Source of the DNA: Escherichia coli O127:H6 str. E2348/69 | Lineage (GTDB): Bacteria; Pseudomonadota; Gammaproteobacteria; Enterobacterales; Enterobacteriaceae | Assembly: GCF_000026545.1 (NCBI RefSeq) | Contig: NC_011601.1 | Length of the DNA: 64,000 nt | Direction: 5' to 3' (one strand) | Shown here: positions 2,508 to 12,200 of the stretch, piece after piece | Layout of the letters: each line of letters opens with the position of its first letter | Position numbering within the stretch: position 1 is the first letter of the stretch | Translations under genes and position numbers: made by a program | The notes under the pieces: model-generated | Seen by the model: only the letters and a program-made list of their open reading frames with translations | Told to the model about the DNA's origin: nothing | Databases searched by the model: none

Positions 2508-2941
2508 TTGCATTAATTCAACGCGTAACCCGTGCCAGCGTCACCGTGGAGGGAGAAGTGACGGGTGAAATTGGCGCGGGACTTTTGGTGTTATTGGGTG
2601 TCGAAAAGGATGACGACGAACAGAAAGCAAACCGTCTGTGCGAGCGTGTGCTCGGCTACCGCATCTTTAGCGATGCCGAAGGCAAGATGAATCTCAACGT
2701 GCAACAGGCGGGCGGCAGTGTACTGGTGGTTTCCCAGTTTACCCTTGCCGCAGATACCGAACGGGGGATGCGCCCAAGTTTCTCCAAAGGCGCATCACCG
2801 GATCGCGCAGAGGCGTTATATGACTATTTCGTCGAACGCTGCCGTCAGCAAGAGATGAACACGCAAACAGGACGCTTCGCTGCGGATATGCAGGTATCGC
2901 TGGTCAATGATGGCCCCGTGACATTCTGGTTGCAGGTATGA
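2504..2941 (+). CDS. dtd: D-aminoacyl-tRNA deacylase
   Basis: 145 aa, N-terminus MIALIQRV; 4-bp overlap with yihY. Confidence 0.93.
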
Positions 2942-3927
2942 GCCAGCTTCCAGGGTTGTCACGGGAAACAAGAGAGAGTATCGCTATGTATCACCTTCGG
3001 GTTCCACAAACAGAAGAAGAATTAGAGCGTTACTATCAGTTTCGCTGGGAAATGTTGCGTAAGCCCCTGCATCAACCAAAAGGTTCGGAACGCGACGCGT
3101 GGGATGCGATGGCGCATCACCAGATGGTCGTCGACGAGCAGGGTAATCTGGTAGCGGTAGGCCGACTGTATATTAATGCCGACAATGAAGCGTCCATTCG
3201 CTTTATGGCCGTTCATCCCGACGTGCAGGACAAAGGGTTAGGCACGCTGATGGCGATGACCCTGGAGTCGGTGGCACGTCAGGAAGGCGTTAAGCGCGTG
3301 ACCTGTAGCGCCCGTGAAGACGCGGTGGAGTTTTTCGCCAAGCTGGGGTTTGTTAATCAGGGAGAAATCACCACGCCAACCACCACGCCGATTCGCCATT
3401 TTTTGATGATTAAACCCGTCGCCACTCTGGATGATATTCTTCATCGCGGCGACTGGTGCGCCCAGCTCCAGCAAGCGTGGTATGAACATATCCCGTTAAG
3501 CGAAAAAATGGGTGTGCGCATTCAGCAATATACCGGGCAAAAATTTATCACCACCATGCCGGAAACCGGCAATCAGAATCCGCATCACACGCTGTTTGCC
3601 GGGAGTTTATTCTCGCTGGCTACGCTCACCGGTTGGGGGCTTATCTGGCTGATGCTGCGCGAACGCCACCTCGGCGGAACGATTATTCTGGCGGATGCGC
3701 ATATCCGCTATAGCAAACCGATTAGCGGTAAACCCCATGCGGTAGCCGACCTTGGTGCCTTAAGTGGCGATCTCGACCGTCTGGCGCGCGGACGAAAAGC
3801 GCGGGTACAAATGCAGGTCGAAATCTTTGGCGACGAGACGCCGGGTGCAGTGTTTGAAGGCACGTATATCGTTCTGCCCGCGAAGCCATTTGGCCCGTAT
3901 GAAGAGGGCGGGAACGAAGAAGAGTAG
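2938..3927 (+). CDS. yiiD: bifunctional GNAT acetyltransferase/thioesterase-domain protein
   Basis: 329 aa; size and position after dtd as in K-12. Confidence 0.88.
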
Positions 3928-3944
3928 GGGCGTTTTACTTGACT

Positions 3945-3973
3945 GAAAAGGTTTTCAATCTGAAAACCTTTTC
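3945..3973 (+). terminator. perfect 12-bp stem hairpin (GAAAAGGTTTTC-loop-GAAAACCTTTTC) after yiiD
   Basis: inverted repeat read directly; lies between yiiD (+) and the convergent esterase gene (-). Confidence 0.6.
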
Positions 3974-3990
3974 TGGGCCCTGGTCCGGAG

Positions 3991-4941
3991 TTACCTTCCC
4001 GCTCTCCAGGCAACATCCCGTAGCGCCGATCGCGCAGCCTCACTGATACCACCTAACTGAAAAAATCCGTGGATAACGCCAAGGTAGCGTTGGCAGGTGC
4101 ATTGCACTCCTTGCCCTGTCATGCGGTGATACAACGCTTCACCTTCATCGCAAAGTGGGTCGTATTCAGCGGTAATGATATGTACAGGTGGCAATCCATT
4201 GAAATCATTGCGCCAAATAGGGCTGGCTTCAGGATGCCTGCGTTCAATGCCTGGCAGGTACATCTCAAAGCCGCTCAGTAAAGTGTCGCGTGTGATGATG
4301 TAATCGTGACCATTGCGTATGTAGCTTTCGAAATGCGCAGTCGCATCAAGCATAGGATAAATTAAGATGAGTTGTGCTGGTTGCCACTCGCCAGCACGCT
4401 TCAATCGCAAAGCAGTTACCTGCGCCAGATGCCCTCCCGCACTGTCACCGGCAAGAGTTATTCGTTGTTTATCAACGCCGAGTCGTTCGGCGTGTTGCCG
4501 GACTAATTCTGCACCTCGTTGTGCATCATCATGGGCGGCGGGGAAAGTATGTTCCGGTGCCAGCCGATACTGGACGGCAATAATCCGACATTGCCCGTAA
4601 TAGGCTAACTGGCGCAGCTGGTTGTCGTGAGTTGCGAACCCGCCGCTAACAAAACAGCCACCGTAGTAATAAATTATCGTCGGGAGTAATGTCGGGGCAT
4701 TCAGCGGTGACACTATTCGTAAGGTCATCCCTTCAAGTTCGATAGTCTGAATATCTACCCGCGTTTCTGTCTCACCCGCAAGGACAGCGCTGGCGATATA
4801 GCCCTCTCTGCGCTGCGTAATACTTTGTTGGCGCGATGAGGGGCGACCCGCAGCGATAAACTCTTCGACTAACTCTGCAATTCCTTTTTCCAGTGCCATA
4901 GTAGAACTCATTTTGCTGTATGAATGTACAGTTTTATACAC
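3991..4941 (-). CDS. alpha/beta-hydrolase fold esterase/lipase (Aes/HSL-family-like)
   Basis: GDSAGG nucleophile-elbow motif and YGGCF oxyanion-hole-like motif; true start uncertain (candidates at M1, M11, M15 of the track ORF); not expected at this position from K-12 order. Confidence 0.7.
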   Translation of the reverse strand: MYKTVHSYSKMSSTMALEKGIAELVEEFIAAGRPSSRQQSITQRREGYIASAVLAGETETRVDIQTIELEGMTLRIVSPLNAPTLLPTIIYYYGGCFVSGGFATHDNQLRQLAYYGQCRIIAVQYRLAPEHTFPAAHDDAQRGAELVRQHAERLGVDKQRITLAGDSAGGHLAQVTALRLKRAGEWQPAQLILIYPMLDATAHFESYIRNGHDYIITRDTLLSGFEMYLPGIERRHPEASPIWRNDFNGLPPVHIITAEYDPLCDEGEALYHRMTGQGVQCTCQRYLGVIHGFFQLGGISEAARSALRDVAWRAGR

Positions 4942-5073
4942 CCGTTTTTACTGGATGGATACAGGGAAATTCACGGGCGTGAAAAATCTGGAAAGCGCCT
5001 CGCAAATGTAAAGACAAACCCGGCAGAGACGTGGTTTTGCTGGAGCACTATCAGTAAGCTAGTGGTTTCAAGG

Positions 5074-5090
5074 GTACGTCAATGACGTAC
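5074..5090. promoter_or_regulatory. perfect palindrome GTACGTCA-A-TGACGTAC upstream of the toxin-antitoxin pair; putative antitoxin operator
   Basis: 8-bp inverted arms read directly, about 40 bp upstream of the higB-like ATG; a TATAAT hexamer also sits at 5121-5126. Confidence 0.4.
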
Positions 5091-5127
5091 AAAAAGGATT
5101 GTTACTCTAAGCCAATGGCGTATAATT

Positions 5128-5439
5128 ATGCTCTTCATCGAAACGGAAATTTTTACTGAAGATGTTCAAAAACTGCTGACCGACGATGAATTCAGTCGTT
5201 TTCAGTTTTTCCTGGCCTTGAATCCTGACTATGGTGAGGTAATACCTGAAACTGGTGGGTTAAGAAAGGTTCGATGGGTGTCAGGAGGAAAGGGGAAACG
5301 TGCTGGTGTCAGGGTTATTTACTTTCATCAGGTTAAACATTATGAGATCAGATTACTGCTTATTTATCGTAAGGGTATTAAAGATGATCTGTCTCCCCAG
5401 GAAAAAGCAATGCTCCGGTTGTTAAATACGAGGTGGTAA
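5128..5439 (+). CDS. RelE/HigB-superfamily toxin (type II TA)
   Basis: 103 aa, basic, toxin-first order, stop abuts the antitoxin ATG; sequence style typical of HigB-like addiction-module killers. Confidence 0.7.
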   Translation: MLFIETEIFTEDVQKLLTDDEFSRFQFFLALNPDYGEVIPETGGLRKVRWVSGGKGKRAGVRVIYFHQVKHYEIRLLLIYRKGIKDDLSPQEKAMLRLLNTRW

Positions 5440-5730
5440 ATGGATAAGGCACTTTTTGAGCGGTTGACTCACAGCATGGCCCAGATGAATGAAATTATTG
5501 AAGGAACGCGACAGCCTTCGCGGACTTTTGAAGTTGATGCTATGAAAATCAAAGAAATACGCCGCGCTTCAGGGTTGTCACAATCTAAATTTGCCGATCT
5601 TATTTCTGTAAGCGTAGACACGTTGCGTAACTGGGAGCAGGGGCGACGTTCACCGACCGGGCCTGCAAAGGCTTTGCTGCGAGCGATTGCCAATGATCCG
5701 CAACATGTGCTGCAAGCACTTAACCGTTAG
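5440..5730 (+). CDS. XRE-family HTH antitoxin (HigA-like)
   Basis: 96 aa; HTH signature SGLSQSKFADLISVSVDTLRNWEQGRR; ATG immediately after the toxin TAA with GAGGTGG SD inside the toxin 3' end. Confidence 0.7.
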   Translation: MDKALFERLTHSMAQMNEIIEGTRQPSRTFEVDAMKIKEIRRASGLSQSKFADLISVSVDTLRNWEQGRRSPTGPAKALLRAIANDPQHVLQALNR

Positions 5731-6198
5731 AGGCATGGTTATGCCATACAGAAAGCACCAGCATTCAGAACTCCTGTGAAAGCGGCGTAGTGCCACCTGC
5801 TCAGGAGTTTTGCTATGACCCGTAATCGTGCTGACCGTTGCCACCCTATGATGCGATTAAAAAAACTCATCGTCGCGCCGATGATTGACGTCAATGCTAT
5901 CGGATGATGTCAGGGGTGTTCCGGAAGGAATTCCTTGTTTCCCGAACTGTTACCAACAAAATTATAACGATGAGCAAGTTAAGACCGGTTGGTAGCAGTA
6001 CTGACCGGTCTGTGATGGATGATTAATTTCACCTTAAATCCGGGTGCTGTTAGGATGCTGACATTTTTCGGCTACACCATTCAGATTATGCAATTAAAGA
6101 TCCAATCAAAAAATAAACATCCCTGTATATAATATATTCATAGCACCTATAATTCATTTTGGGCGATAACTAAACCATTTTTGAGTAACAAATGAAAC

Positions 6199-6553: not shown

Positions 6554-6646
6554 CAAAAAGATTTTTTCATTCTTGAATATAAAAACAAAAAACCAGATGA
6601 CCTTATTCTGGTATTAATACAAGGTTGTTTTACTTGAACTTATAAT

Positions 6647-6691
6647 AACTGCAACTGTTACATCATATCTGGAAAACGCCTCGCGAAATAC
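6647..6691. repeat. copy 2 of the ~45-bp motif, downstream of yiiE with no ORF following
   Basis: see copy 1; nothing of at least 60 aa lies between it and the fdhE stop. Confidence 0.5.
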
Positions 6692-6776
6692 GAGAGATTT
6701 TGCGGGAATAGCAGGTGTCGTCACACCCTATGAGCTGTAATCCGGGCGACCAGCGCCACCCGGAAAACGTCAGAGA

Positions 6777-9249: not shown

Positions 9250-12200
9250 TTACACCTTTTCCACATTCACAAGGAAGGACTTAAACTCCGGCGTCTGCGT
9301 GTTCGCATCACCGACGAATGGCGTCAACGTATTGGCAATAAAGCCTTTTTTCGCAACACCTTCATAGCCCCAGTGAATCGGAATACCGATGGTATCGATA
9401 TCTTTGCCGTTTGCTTTCAGCGTGCGAATACGTTTGGTCACTACCGCTTTGGCTTTGATATAGCCACGGTTGGAGGAGACTTTCACAGTATCGCCCTGGG
9501 CAATGCCAAGTTTATTCGCCAGCGACTCCCCGATTTCCACAAACTGCTCTGGTTGCAAAATCGCATTCAACAGCGCGTGTTTGGTCCAGTAGTGGAAGTG
9601 CTCGGTCAGACGATAGGTGGTTCCGACATACGGGAACTTATCGGCTTTACCCAATGCTTCGGCGTCGTCTTTAAAGATACGCGCAGCCGGGTTCGAGATA
9701 ACGTTTGGATGCAGCGGGTTAGTTCCCAGCGGCGTTTCAAACGGCTCGTAGTGTTCCGGGAACGGACCTTCCGCCATCTTATCGAGGGCAAACAGACGTC
9801 CCATGCCTTCCTGCTGCATGATAAACGGCCCTACGCCGCTGCCCGGAGGCGCTGCGCTGTAGTCCGGAATATCCCAGCCGGTCCACTTAGTGCCGTCCCA
9901 TTTCAGCAACTGACGCTTCGGATCCCATGGGTTACCCTGCGGATCTGCGGAGGCGCGGTTATACAGAATGCGGCGGTTTAGCGGCCATGCCCATGCCCAG
10001 CCCAGCGTGTTACCGAGGCCAGACGGATCGGCGTTATCACGACGCGCCATCTGGTTGCCTTCCGGCGTCCAGCTACCGGCGAAAATCCAGCAGCCACAGG
10101 AGGTTGTACCGTCATCGCGCAGTTGGGCGAACGAGCTAAGTTGTTGGCCTTTCTTGACGATAACCGCACCGGTTGCCGGGTCGGTAATATCGGCCAGCGC
10201 TTTGCCGTTGCTCTCCATTGCCACTTCTTCTGAAGATGGCTCATGCGGAATGGCGTAGTTCCAGGTCATGTTCAGCACCTGGTCCGGGTTCGCGCCACCC
10301 TGTTCGGCATACATCTTGCGCAAGCGCAGGAAGATACCGGAGAGGATCTCGCCATCAGTCAGCGCAATCCCCGGGGCGTCCGCACCTTTCCAGTGCCACT
10401 GTAACCAGCGACCTGAGTTAACGATAGAACCGTTCTCTTCCGCGAAGCAGGTCGATGGTAGACGGAACACTTCGGTCTGGATCTTCGACGAGTCAACTTC
10501 GTTCAGCTCACCGTGGTTCTGCCAGAAGTTAGAGGTTTCAGTGTTCAGCGGGTCGATAGTCACGAGGAATTTCAGCTTCGACAGACAGCCGATCACTTTG
10601 TTTTTGTTCGGGAATGAGGCAACAGGGTTAAAGCCCTGGCAGATATAGCCATTGACCTTGCCTTCTTTCATCATCTCGAAGTATTGCAGGACGTCGTAGC
10701 CTTTATCCCACTTCGGCAACCAGTCAAAGCCCCAGCTATTTTCCGCCGTCGCTTTATCACCAAAGAAGGCCTTCATCATAGAGACGAAGAATTTCGGGTA
10801 GTTGCCCCAGTAGTTTACCTGGCCTTCCAGCAGCGGTTTTGGCGTGTTGGCGGTAAGGTAGGTTTGCAGATCGGTCTGCTTCTCGCTTGGCAGCGTCATG
10901 TAACCTGGCAGGCTCTGCGACAGCAGCCCCAGGTCGGTCAGCCCCTGAATATTGGAGTGACCGCGCAGGGCGTTAACGCCGCCGCCAGCCATCCCCATAT
11001 TGCCGAGCAGCAACTGGATCATCGCCATCGTACGGATGTTCTGCGCACCGATGGAGTGTTGCGTCCAGCCGAGCGCGTAAAGGAACGAGGCAGTTTTATC
11101 GTGAGCACTGGTTTCGGCGATGTATTCGCAGACTTTCAGGAATGCGTCTTTTGGCGTACCACAGATGTTTTCAACCACATCTGGCGTGTAGCGGGAAACG
11201 TGCTGTTTCAGCAAGTTCCACACGCAACGTGGATGTTGCAGGGTAGTATCGCGTTTGGCGAAGCCGTTTTCGTCCAGTTCGTAAGTCCAGGTGGACTTAT
11301 CGTACTTGCGTTTTTCCGCGTCGTAGCCGGTGAACAGGCCATCTTCAAAGCCGTAATCCTCACGCACGATCAGGCTAGCGTTGGTATAGGCTTCGGTGTA
11401 TTCGCGGTTGAATTTTTCATTGTTCAGCAGGTACAGCAATACGCCTGACAGGAAAGCAATGTCAGTACCGGAACGGATAGGGGCATAGTAGTCAGCCACC
11501 GCCGCTGTACGTGTAAAGCGAGGATCGATCACAATCAGCTTCGCGCCGTTGTGAATTTTGGCTTCCATCGCCCAGCGGAACCCGACCGGGTGAGCTTCAG
11601 CGGCGTTACCGCCCATCACCACGACGAGGTTGGCATTCTTGATGTCGACCCAGTGGTTGGTCATCGCACCGCGACCAAATGTTGGAGCAAGACTTGCTAC
11701 CGTTGGTCCGTGTCAGACACGCGCCTGGTTGTCGACCGCGAGCATACCCAGCGCGCGGGAGAATTTTTGCGTTAAATAGCCGGTTTCGTTACTCGACGCG
11801 GAAGCACACAGCATCCCGGTGGAGAGCCAGCGGTTAACAGTCACGCCTTCGGCGTTTTGCGCAATGTAGTTCGCATCGCGGTCTTCTTTCATCAGTTTGG
11901 CGATGCGATCAAACGCCTCTTCCCAACTGATTTGCTGCCATTTATCAGAACCTGGCGCACGGTATTCCGGAAACTTCAGGCGGCTTTCGGAGTGGATGAA
12001 ATCCACCAGGCCAGCGCCTTTCGGACAAAGTGCTCCGCGGTTGACCGGGTGATCCGGGTCACCTTCGATATGGAAGATAGATGCTTTGGCGTTTTTTGCT
12101 CCGTCACCGAGGCTGTACATCAACAGCCCACAGCCTACGGAACAATAGGTGCAGGTATTACGGGTTTCGCGGGTGCGCAGCAGTTTATACTGCCGGGTTT

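Follow-up and report, generated by a model that had tools for sequence, protein, structure and literature searches.

A family IV esterase of Escherichia coli with a YGGCF oxyanion loop and a putative LexA operator

The oxyanion hole of family IV (HSL-type) esterases is made up of backbone NH groups contributed by the last two glycines of an HGGG motif and by the alanine that follows the catalytic serine (PMC7905190, PMC10537300). Here, we describe a gene whose product departs from this motif. It is located in a 64,000-nucleotide stretch of DNA (the window), which matches the chromosome of Escherichia coli E2348/69 at 100% identity, and it occupies positions 3991..4899 of the minus strand, stop codon included. 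The encoded protein of 302 residues reads YGGCF at the oxyanion loop, and the upstream region carries a putative LexA (SOS) operator. As judged from sequence and predicted structure, the most likely reading is that of an active esterase in which the replacement of the motif histidine by tyrosine, H79Y, is tolerated or modulatory.

The best solved relatives are PestE (2YH2/3ZWQ), Est8 (4YPV), LAE6/EH1AB1 (5JD4/6I8D), and EST2 (1EVQ). They have in common with the E. coli esterase the fold and its N-terminal cap, the GDSAG elbow, the Ser-Asp-His triad, and an oxyanion loop that comes after strand beta3. In contrast, these four enzymes read HGGG(F/W) at the loop; none of them belongs to the Enterobacteriaceae clade considered here and none is known to be SOS-regulated. 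Other described enzymes bear a small side chain at the third glycine and keep the fold, namely PMGL2 (HGGAF), TmelEST1 (HGGAW), and the EST2 variant G84S (2HM7). The two natural HGGA enzymes, PMGL2 (PMC6986724) and TmelEST1 (PMC5550427), both fold and show activity, and Gly to Ala mutants lose activity by factors ranging from less than 4-fold to 140-fold, depending on the enzyme. The E. coli esterase differs from these cases since it has a cysteine at the third glycine and its histidine is replaced too. The motif histidine is described as buried and “stabilized by H-bonds” (PMC5550427); in the literature reached, its role is covered by general statements, with no mutational data.

Within E. 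coli, the other HSL paralogue is Aes (4KRX; PRK10162), which has the same domain and triad. Aes is distant (phmmer E = 1e-28), keeps HGGG, and is present in K-12, whereas the gene described here has YGGC and is absent from K-12. The aes gene lies at a different locus, and it is not known to have a LexA box. Much closer are the orthologs from Salmonella, Citrobacter, Enterobacter, Klebsiella/Raoultella, Kosakonia, and others, which are 74-81% identical, about 302 residues long, and annotated as “alpha/beta hydrolase”, “lipase” or “acetyl esterase”. They share with the E. coli gene the fdhE-fabY locus, Cys82, and the LexA box and -10 element upstream. Unlike the E. coli gene, they have kept His79 (HGGCF) and an AAGG Shine-Dalgarno sequence.

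Family, fold and the oxyanion loop

The protein matches Pfam PF07859 (Abhydrolase_3) over profile positions 1-209 of 210, with 230.3 bits for a cut-off of 25 (E = 2.6e-68). Among solved structures, PestE, Est8, and LAE6/EH1AB1 are matched at E-values of about 1e-50 to 1e-51 and EST2 at about 1e-44. A chance open reading frame (ORF) is discarded on the Pfam match, the best solved-structure match (E = 5e-51), and the RefSeq annotation. The AlphaFold2 (AF2) model, a predicted structure obtained from a 108-sequence alignment, has a predicted local distance difference test score (pLDDT) of 96.8 and a predicted template modelling score (pTM) of 0.95. It consists of an alpha/beta hydrolase core with a helical N-terminal cap, as expected for family IV, and Foldseek superimposes it on Est8, LAE6, PestE, and EST2 with template modelling scores of 0.91-0.95 at 33-37% identity.

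The catalytic residues are all in place. The nucleophile elbow G151-D-S153-A-G-G156 is encoded at 4432..4449 (minus strand; Ser153 codon 4441-4443), and its serine column holds Ser in 127 of the 128 aligned family members. Asp247, in DPLCDEG (4159..4161, minus strand), and His277, in IHGF (4069..4071, minus strand), are invariant columns of the 108-sequence alignment. Hence, both the GDSAG elbow and the Asp and His of the DPLxD/HGF blocks that characterize family IV are present. In the AF2 model, a strand-helix elbow holds Ser153, strands precede both Asp247 and His277, and the oxyanion loop comes directly after strand 72-78.

By homology, predicted fold, elbow and triad, the gene product is thus a family IV (HSL-type) esterase of the GDSAG subfamily. 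Pfam, solved-structure matches, Foldseek, and alignment agree on this point with an earlier note on the same DNA, which had proposed an HSL-family esterase with a canonical nucleophile elbow. Scores against the NCBIfam equivalogs are all below cut-off, for LipP1 (NF058653, 237.6 for 350), chloramphenicol hydrolase (NF033149, 162 for 500), and Aes (NF007547, 137.8 for 389), and identity as any of these three was rejected on these cut-offs. Since direct reading of the N-terminus reveals no hydrophobic stretch resembling a signal peptide, the protein is probably cytoplasmic.

One defining feature is missing. Where family IV enzymes have H-G-G-G, about 70 residues before the serine, the protein reads Y79-G-G-C82. 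The complete loop, Y79-G80-G81-C82-F83 for a consensus H-G-G-G-F/W, is encoded at 4651..4665 on the minus strand, with the TAC codon of Tyr79 at 4663-4665 and the Cys codon at 4654-4656. With respect to the GGG(A)X class of oxyanion holes (Lipase Engineering Database, with classes GGGX, GX, and Y), the loop reads G-G-C-F, where Phe fits the hydrophobic X and Cys is outside the published G/A alternatives (PMC5550427; PMC2841678). Because HGGG belongs to the family definition, the protein is, on its aligned sequence, classed as a real but modest variant of family IV rather than as a standard member. The non-canonical motif had already been pointed out in the earlier note, and the alignment with family members bears it out.

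The two substitutions have different histories. The protein was aligned with 127 distant representatives that share less than 50% identity with each other; all 127 have His at the first motif position, and the query alone has Tyr. The fourth position is more variable (Gly in 111 of 128 sequences, Cys in 9, about 7%, with Ala, Ser, Trp, Val or Arg making up the remainder). The best 120 database matches comprise 114 HGGCF sequences and 6 YGGCF sequences, the latter all from the E. coli cluster or its fragments, and Cys82 is found in 129 of 129 close sequences (114 orthologs and 15 from E. coli). As Cys82 is common to every ortholog, the change from Gly to Cys is ordinary clade divergence and, on these alignments, the ancestral state of the Enterobacterales clade.

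A scan of one genome per species with the pattern YY[H/Y]GGCF[V/I] gave at least 120 stretches. Among the matches listed, 109 are true HGGCF esterases, with hosts in Enterobacteriaceae, Hafnia, Rahnella, Pectobacterium, Erwinia, Shewanella, Vibrio furnissii, Paenibacillus, and others. Eleven “YYYGGCF” matches were set aside as chance occurrences in unrelated frames with stop codons. The matches listed do not extend to Escherichia, so that E. albertii, E. fergusonii, and E. marmotae are not among them. Within E. coli, a 41-mer centred on codon 79 was searched by megablast, a test in which a match is possible only when the central base agrees. The TAC version is present in 2637 complete genomes and the CAC version in 0. 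On present sampling, the change from His79 to Tyr is therefore derived and fixed in E. coli alone, at an otherwise invariant residue. The idea that the unusual motif is simply lineage divergence, also put forward in the earlier note, holds for the cysteine; the tyrosine is a derived trait of E. coli only. That note had also envisaged that the motif might prove common in a characterised subfamily. Instead, HGGC is common in one clade alone, which is uncharacterised, and YGGC turned up in no other lineage.

Does H79Y alter the function? The earlier note had raised an altered substrate specificity as the other option for the unusual motif. The active site would use the Ser153-Asp247-His277 triad of a cytoplasmic serine carboxylesterase, and the oxyanion would be stabilised by the backbone NH groups of Gly81, Cys82, and Ala154. 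A cysteine side chain at the third glycine position would leave the backbone NH in place. Because the oxyanion hole is built from backbone NH groups, independently of side chains, the enzyme is most likely still active. Tyr79 results from a single C to T change fixed in the E. coli lineage, and its hydroxyl group may replace the loop-stabilising hydrogen bonds of the histidine.

It is also conceivable that the change was fixed by adaptation, for an altered substrate range, pH profile or chemistry, for instance with the Tyr hydroxyl contributing to the oxyanion site or reshaping it; the E. coli enzyme would in that case have a capacity that its orthologs lack. Indeed, 150 columns are at least 95% conserved among the 114 orthologs, and E. 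coli deviates at one of them only, H79Y, in the catalytic loop (single orthologs deviate at 0-6 of these columns, 1.5 on average). Within the family, residues of the HGGG motif are known to determine specificity (PMC10099132), and a Tyr-type oxyanion class is known in alpha/beta hydrolases (PMC2841678). However, Tyr79 lies three residues before the oxyanion residue, which is not the position of the Y class, and there are no accompanying substitutions nearby. One fixed transition may also be due to drift or hitch-hiking. Even though the tyrosine is fixed in all 2637 copies and purifying selection is ongoing, the weakened ribosome-binding site and -35 element and the frequent loss of the gene, described below, are unlike what a newly valuable function would bring. 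We regard adaptive re-tuning as unlikely.

A third view is that H79Y cripples catalysis and that the protein is kept for binding a ligand or another protein. The invariance of the histidine elsewhere and the persistence of purifying selection despite H79Y are in its favour. The structural relatives include GID1 gibberellin receptors, which have a binding role, and E. coli Aes (4KRX), which binds MalT. Against such a pseudoenzyme, the triad, GDSAGG, and the two oxyanion glycines are intact, although a pure binder could lose them, and the oxyanion hole is formed by backbone groups. This view appears quite improbable.

The gene is a natural experiment on the HGGG histidine, a residue found replaced nowhere else. 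The change is single and fixed in an otherwise perfectly conserved background, and the His79-bearing orthologs, at 75-80% identity, serve as controls for Tyr79. As the HGGG motif controls chain-length and tertiary-ester specificity, the cysteine at the third glycine, which marks a large unstudied clade, is relevant to esterase engineering. In the open-access literature searched, a limited collection, no paper on HGGC or YGGC esterases was found. Finally, covariation of Cys82 with Cys250, a possible disulfide or redox pair, was looked for and no association was found.

LexA box, putative promoter and start codon

Alignment of the upstream regions brought to light a perfect CTGT-N8-ACAG palindrome adjoining a -10-like TATAAA, which the earlier note, right about the motifs and the family, had overlooked together with the strand of the gene. 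The LexA box AACTGTACATTCATACAGCA lies at 4914..4933 (minus strand). Its core, CTGT-N8-ACAG, occupies 4916-4931 and begins 32 nt before the ATG. The box was scored with a matrix made from 14 boxes of K-12 strain MG1655, located at recA, lexA (two), sulA, umuD, uvrA, recN (two), dinI, uvrB, yebG, dinB, uvrD, and dinD, all of which are LexA sites. The esterase box reaches 21.2 bits, within the 13.1-26.8 bits of the 14 K-12 sites in leave-one-out scoring, and the next best site of the 64-kb window has 12.4 bits.

The box is also conserved. It is found in 64 of the 98 orthologous loci with enough upstream sequence (50 strict and 14 relaxed, CTG-N10-CAG), in about 20 genera, for a chance expectation of about 0.024 boxes per locus. 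Its carriers include Citrobacter, Enterobacter, Salmonella, Raoultella, Kluyvera, Kosakonia, and Lelliottia. Nearly all the boxes are 28-36 nt before the ATG; that of V. furnissii is at 68 nt. Among the 98 loci, those of Hafnia, Cedecea, Rahnella, Pectobacterium, Shewanella, and Firmicutes have no box. Since Enterobacter keeps the box at a locus devoid of the toxin-antitoxin cassette found elsewhere (see below), the box serves the esterase gene.

Since its score falls within the range of proven sites, and since it is placed at the promoter and conserved in orthologs, the putative operator has the properties expected of the LexA regulon, and its conservation suggests SOS control of the esterase. 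As in the K-12 SOS genes (sulA, recA, umuDC, dinD, and others), the site is of the CTGT-N8-ACAG type; its score is mid-range among verified boxes, and its sequence is nearest to that of the sulA box. It also resembles the sites of LexA-repressed SOS genes by its location adjacent to the -10 element, at which bound LexA would prevent initiation. Because the operator covers the region of the transcription start, the gene is probably under LexA repression and inducible by DNA damage. The product, unlike those of the K-12 SOS genes, is a hydrolase that has no obvious connection with DNA repair. In a dam mutant of Salmonella, a background reported to have its SOS regulon up-regulated, expression of a “putative acetyl esterase” (STMUK_4015, a candidate ortholog) is about 3-fold higher, along with that of recA, sulA, umuDC, and others (PMC4213855). 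No paper on a LexA-controlled esterase in enterobacteria was found in the limited open-access collection searched, and the gene, being absent from K-12, could not show up in K-12 regulon studies. If the box is functional, a carboxylesterase takes part in the SOS response of most Enterobacteriaceae, hidden from K-12-based work, which raises the question of which ester is hydrolysed after DNA damage.

The inferred promoter extends over 4933..4961 on the minus strand, with a -35-like TATCCA (4956-4961), a 17-nt spacer, and the -10 element TATAAA (4933-4938). In an alignment of 65 upstream sequences, the conserved columns include the -10 element TATAA(A/G) and, further upstream, TTTTCA. E. coli has TATCCA where orthologs have TTTTCA at -35. 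Similarly, orthologs carry an AAGG/AGGA Shine-Dalgarno sequence 8-12 nt before the ATG, where E. coli has AAATGAG or AAATAAG (4900-4915 compared with loci L002, L009, L010, and L011). On these comparisons, the expression signals of the E. coli gene look weakened. The observation in the earlier note that there is no clear Shine-Dalgarno sequence is true of all three candidate starts and, since orthologs keep the sequence that E. coli lost, it corresponds to a real, derived feature of E. coli.

These three starts were the “three in-frame Met within 15 codons” which had led to the start codon being called ambiguous. The interval 3991..4941 is the longest reading of the minus-strand ORF, 316 residues from GTG 4941, and its translation holds both motifs noticed earlier, IIYYYGGCFVSGGF and GDSAGG. 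The other two starts are ATG 4911 (306 residues) and ATG 4899 (302 residues), and comparative data settle the ambiguity in favour of the last one. RefSeq/PGAP annotates an “alpha/beta hydrolase” (WP_001386513.1) of 302 residues starting at ATG 4899, and 302 residues is the length of most of the 120 closest database relatives. The sequence MALExGI opens all retrieved orthologs at the equivalent ATG (Salmonella, Citrobacter, Enterobacter, another enterobacterium, and four more E. coli alleles), and the extension upstream of ATG 4899 is not conserved in them. The 306-residue reading is also discarded because two E. coli alleles, L006 and L007, have ATA in place of ATG 4911. The 316-residue reading is discarded because GTG 4941-4939 directly adjoins the inferred and conserved -10 hexamer, so that it would sit upstream of the transcript. 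By this comparison, the true start is ATG 4899. The ORF previously delimited at 3991-4941 does exist, but only 3991..4899 is coding; the top 42 nt, 4900..4941 (minus strand), are untranslated leader and promoter, as indicated by the adjacency to the -10 element and by the comparison of alleles.

Presence and selection within E. coli

The coding sequence is found in 2639 of 5426 complete E. coli genomes, at 97.1-100% identity, and is full length in 2636 of them. Five E. coli alleles segregate 19 synonymous and 12 non-synonymous changes; as about 76% of changes are expected to be non-synonymous under neutrality, the departure is significant (p of about 1e-5). Pairwise ratios of non-synonymous to synonymous divergence (dN/dS) among E. 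coli alleles are 0.13-0.31, and Tajima relative-rate tests indicate that the E. coli branch is not accelerated. The selection statistics together with the intactness of the copies indicate that the gene is under purifying selection and is not decaying, and pseudogene formation was discarded as the main explanation on the same grounds. The raised dN/dS within the species, compared with a saturated between-genus value, has no counterpart in the neighbouring fabY and may reflect some relaxed constraint in E. coli. Locus L002 (81% identical, HGGCF) was considered as a sister species for dating the change from His to Tyr; its fabY synonymous divergence (dS) of 1.3-1.6 from E. coli places it in another genus, and it was rejected for this purpose.

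Several observations weigh against an active enzyme that simply tolerates the change. The otherwise invariant His79 argues for the importance of this residue. E. coli lacks the AAGG Shine-Dalgarno sequence of the orthologs and its -35 element is weakened, the gene is missing from about half of the strains, and dN/dS within E. coli (about 0.2) exceeds the between-genus value (about 0.05, with dS saturated). The lost signals, the absences and the dN/dS values are compatible with a reduced importance of the gene in E. coli. In addition, a scan for consensus sigma-70 promoters found none on the minus strand, and the Salmonella STMUK_4015 is only a candidate ortholog of the esterase.

Pushed further, these observations would depict a gene on its way out, in which a mildly deleterious H79Y drifted to fixation in the ancestor of E. 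coli while expression signals eroded and the remaining copies became marginal. In keeping with such a course, about 51% of complete genomes lack the gene, among them K-12, which has a 474-bp AT-rich segment instead; the Shine-Dalgarno sequence is lost, the -35 element is weakened, and the within-species dN/dS is about 3-4 times the between-genus value, unlike fabY. Nevertheless, 2636 of 2639 copies are full length, the sampled copies are all annotated as intact, non-synonymous changes are strongly depleted, the lineage is not accelerated, and no other conserved residue is altered. Loss in progress is, in our opinion, a poor candidate.

We retain an active enzyme with a tolerated or modulatory H79Y as the most likely situation. 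A bolder combination, in which an unrecognised LexA-repressed SOS esterase, spread across Enterobacteriaceae, has in addition acquired an altered function through H79Y (a new substrate or chemistry, or binding), seems rather unlikely. Overall, the finding is modest and, taken alone, adds a further member to the uncharacterised esterases of family IV. For a specialist, it would be mildly surprising that the loss of the motif histidine is fixed, and the conserved SOS box would be of greater interest.

Locus and neighbours

The order fdhE, variable toxin-antitoxin cassette, esterase, fabY (convergent), dtd, yihY, yihX is kept in Salmonella, Citrobacter, Enterobacter, and another enterobacterium. 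By this conserved synteny, the esterase gene is ancestral at the locus across Enterobacteriaceae and not a recent import. It has long occupied the interval between fdhE and fabY, and about half of E. coli strains, K-12 included, have lost it by deletion or replacement. In the window, the cassette lies at 5128-5730 on the plus strand, divergent from the esterase, and encodes a RelE/ParE-like toxin (103 residues, weak Pfam RelE match) and a NadS/HTH_3 antitoxin (96 residues). Its type varies by genus (PIN+RHH, HigB+HTH or RelE+HTH) and Enterobacter has none. The gene STM4032 was reported between two toxin-antitoxin modules (PMC3868539); this paper is retracted and is not relied on here.

Comparison of K-12 (L012:6440-6913) with window positions 3928-5937 shows that the esterase and the cassette are missing from K-12, whose fabY and yiiE genes are separated by a 474-bp AT-rich segment. 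This segment is unrelated DNA, annotated as a hypothetical protein in other strains, and tblastn found no remnant of the esterase or of the toxin-antitoxin genes within it. It is present in about 3056-3083 of the 5426 genomes. Since the esterase is in 2639 of them, the two states must coexist in a few hundred genomes. One of these is that of strain YDC107 (L008), in which an insertion sequence transposase separates them.

Between the convergent fabY and esterase genes, which are 63 nt apart, there is a perfect 12-13-bp A/U-rich hairpin, GAAAAGGTTTTC-AATCT-GAAAACCTTTTC, at 3945..3973. Its minimum free energy is -21.5 kcal/mol (z = -2.84) and 0 of 200 shuffled sequences fold as well. A scan for GC-rich terminators left it unflagged. 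It may be a bidirectional terminator.

The annotated start of fabY (yiiD, 2938-3927, plus strand) varies, with 329 residues in K-12 from the equivalent of 2938, overlapping dtd, and 313 residues from 2986 in PGAP for E2348/69 and other strains. The yiiF gene, found between yiiE and fdhE in K-12, L006, and L007, is absent from E2348/69 and L005, and the spacing between yiiE and fdhE in E2348/69 is only 223 bp (6554-6776). Further along, the 804-residue ORF at 9250-11664 (minus strand) covers only the C-terminal region of the alpha subunit of formate dehydrogenase, for which the RefSeq coding sequence extends upstream. The ORF is interrupted by the in-frame selenocysteine UGA codon, a known feature, and the same split into 195 and 804 residues is seen at the Enterobacter locus L011.

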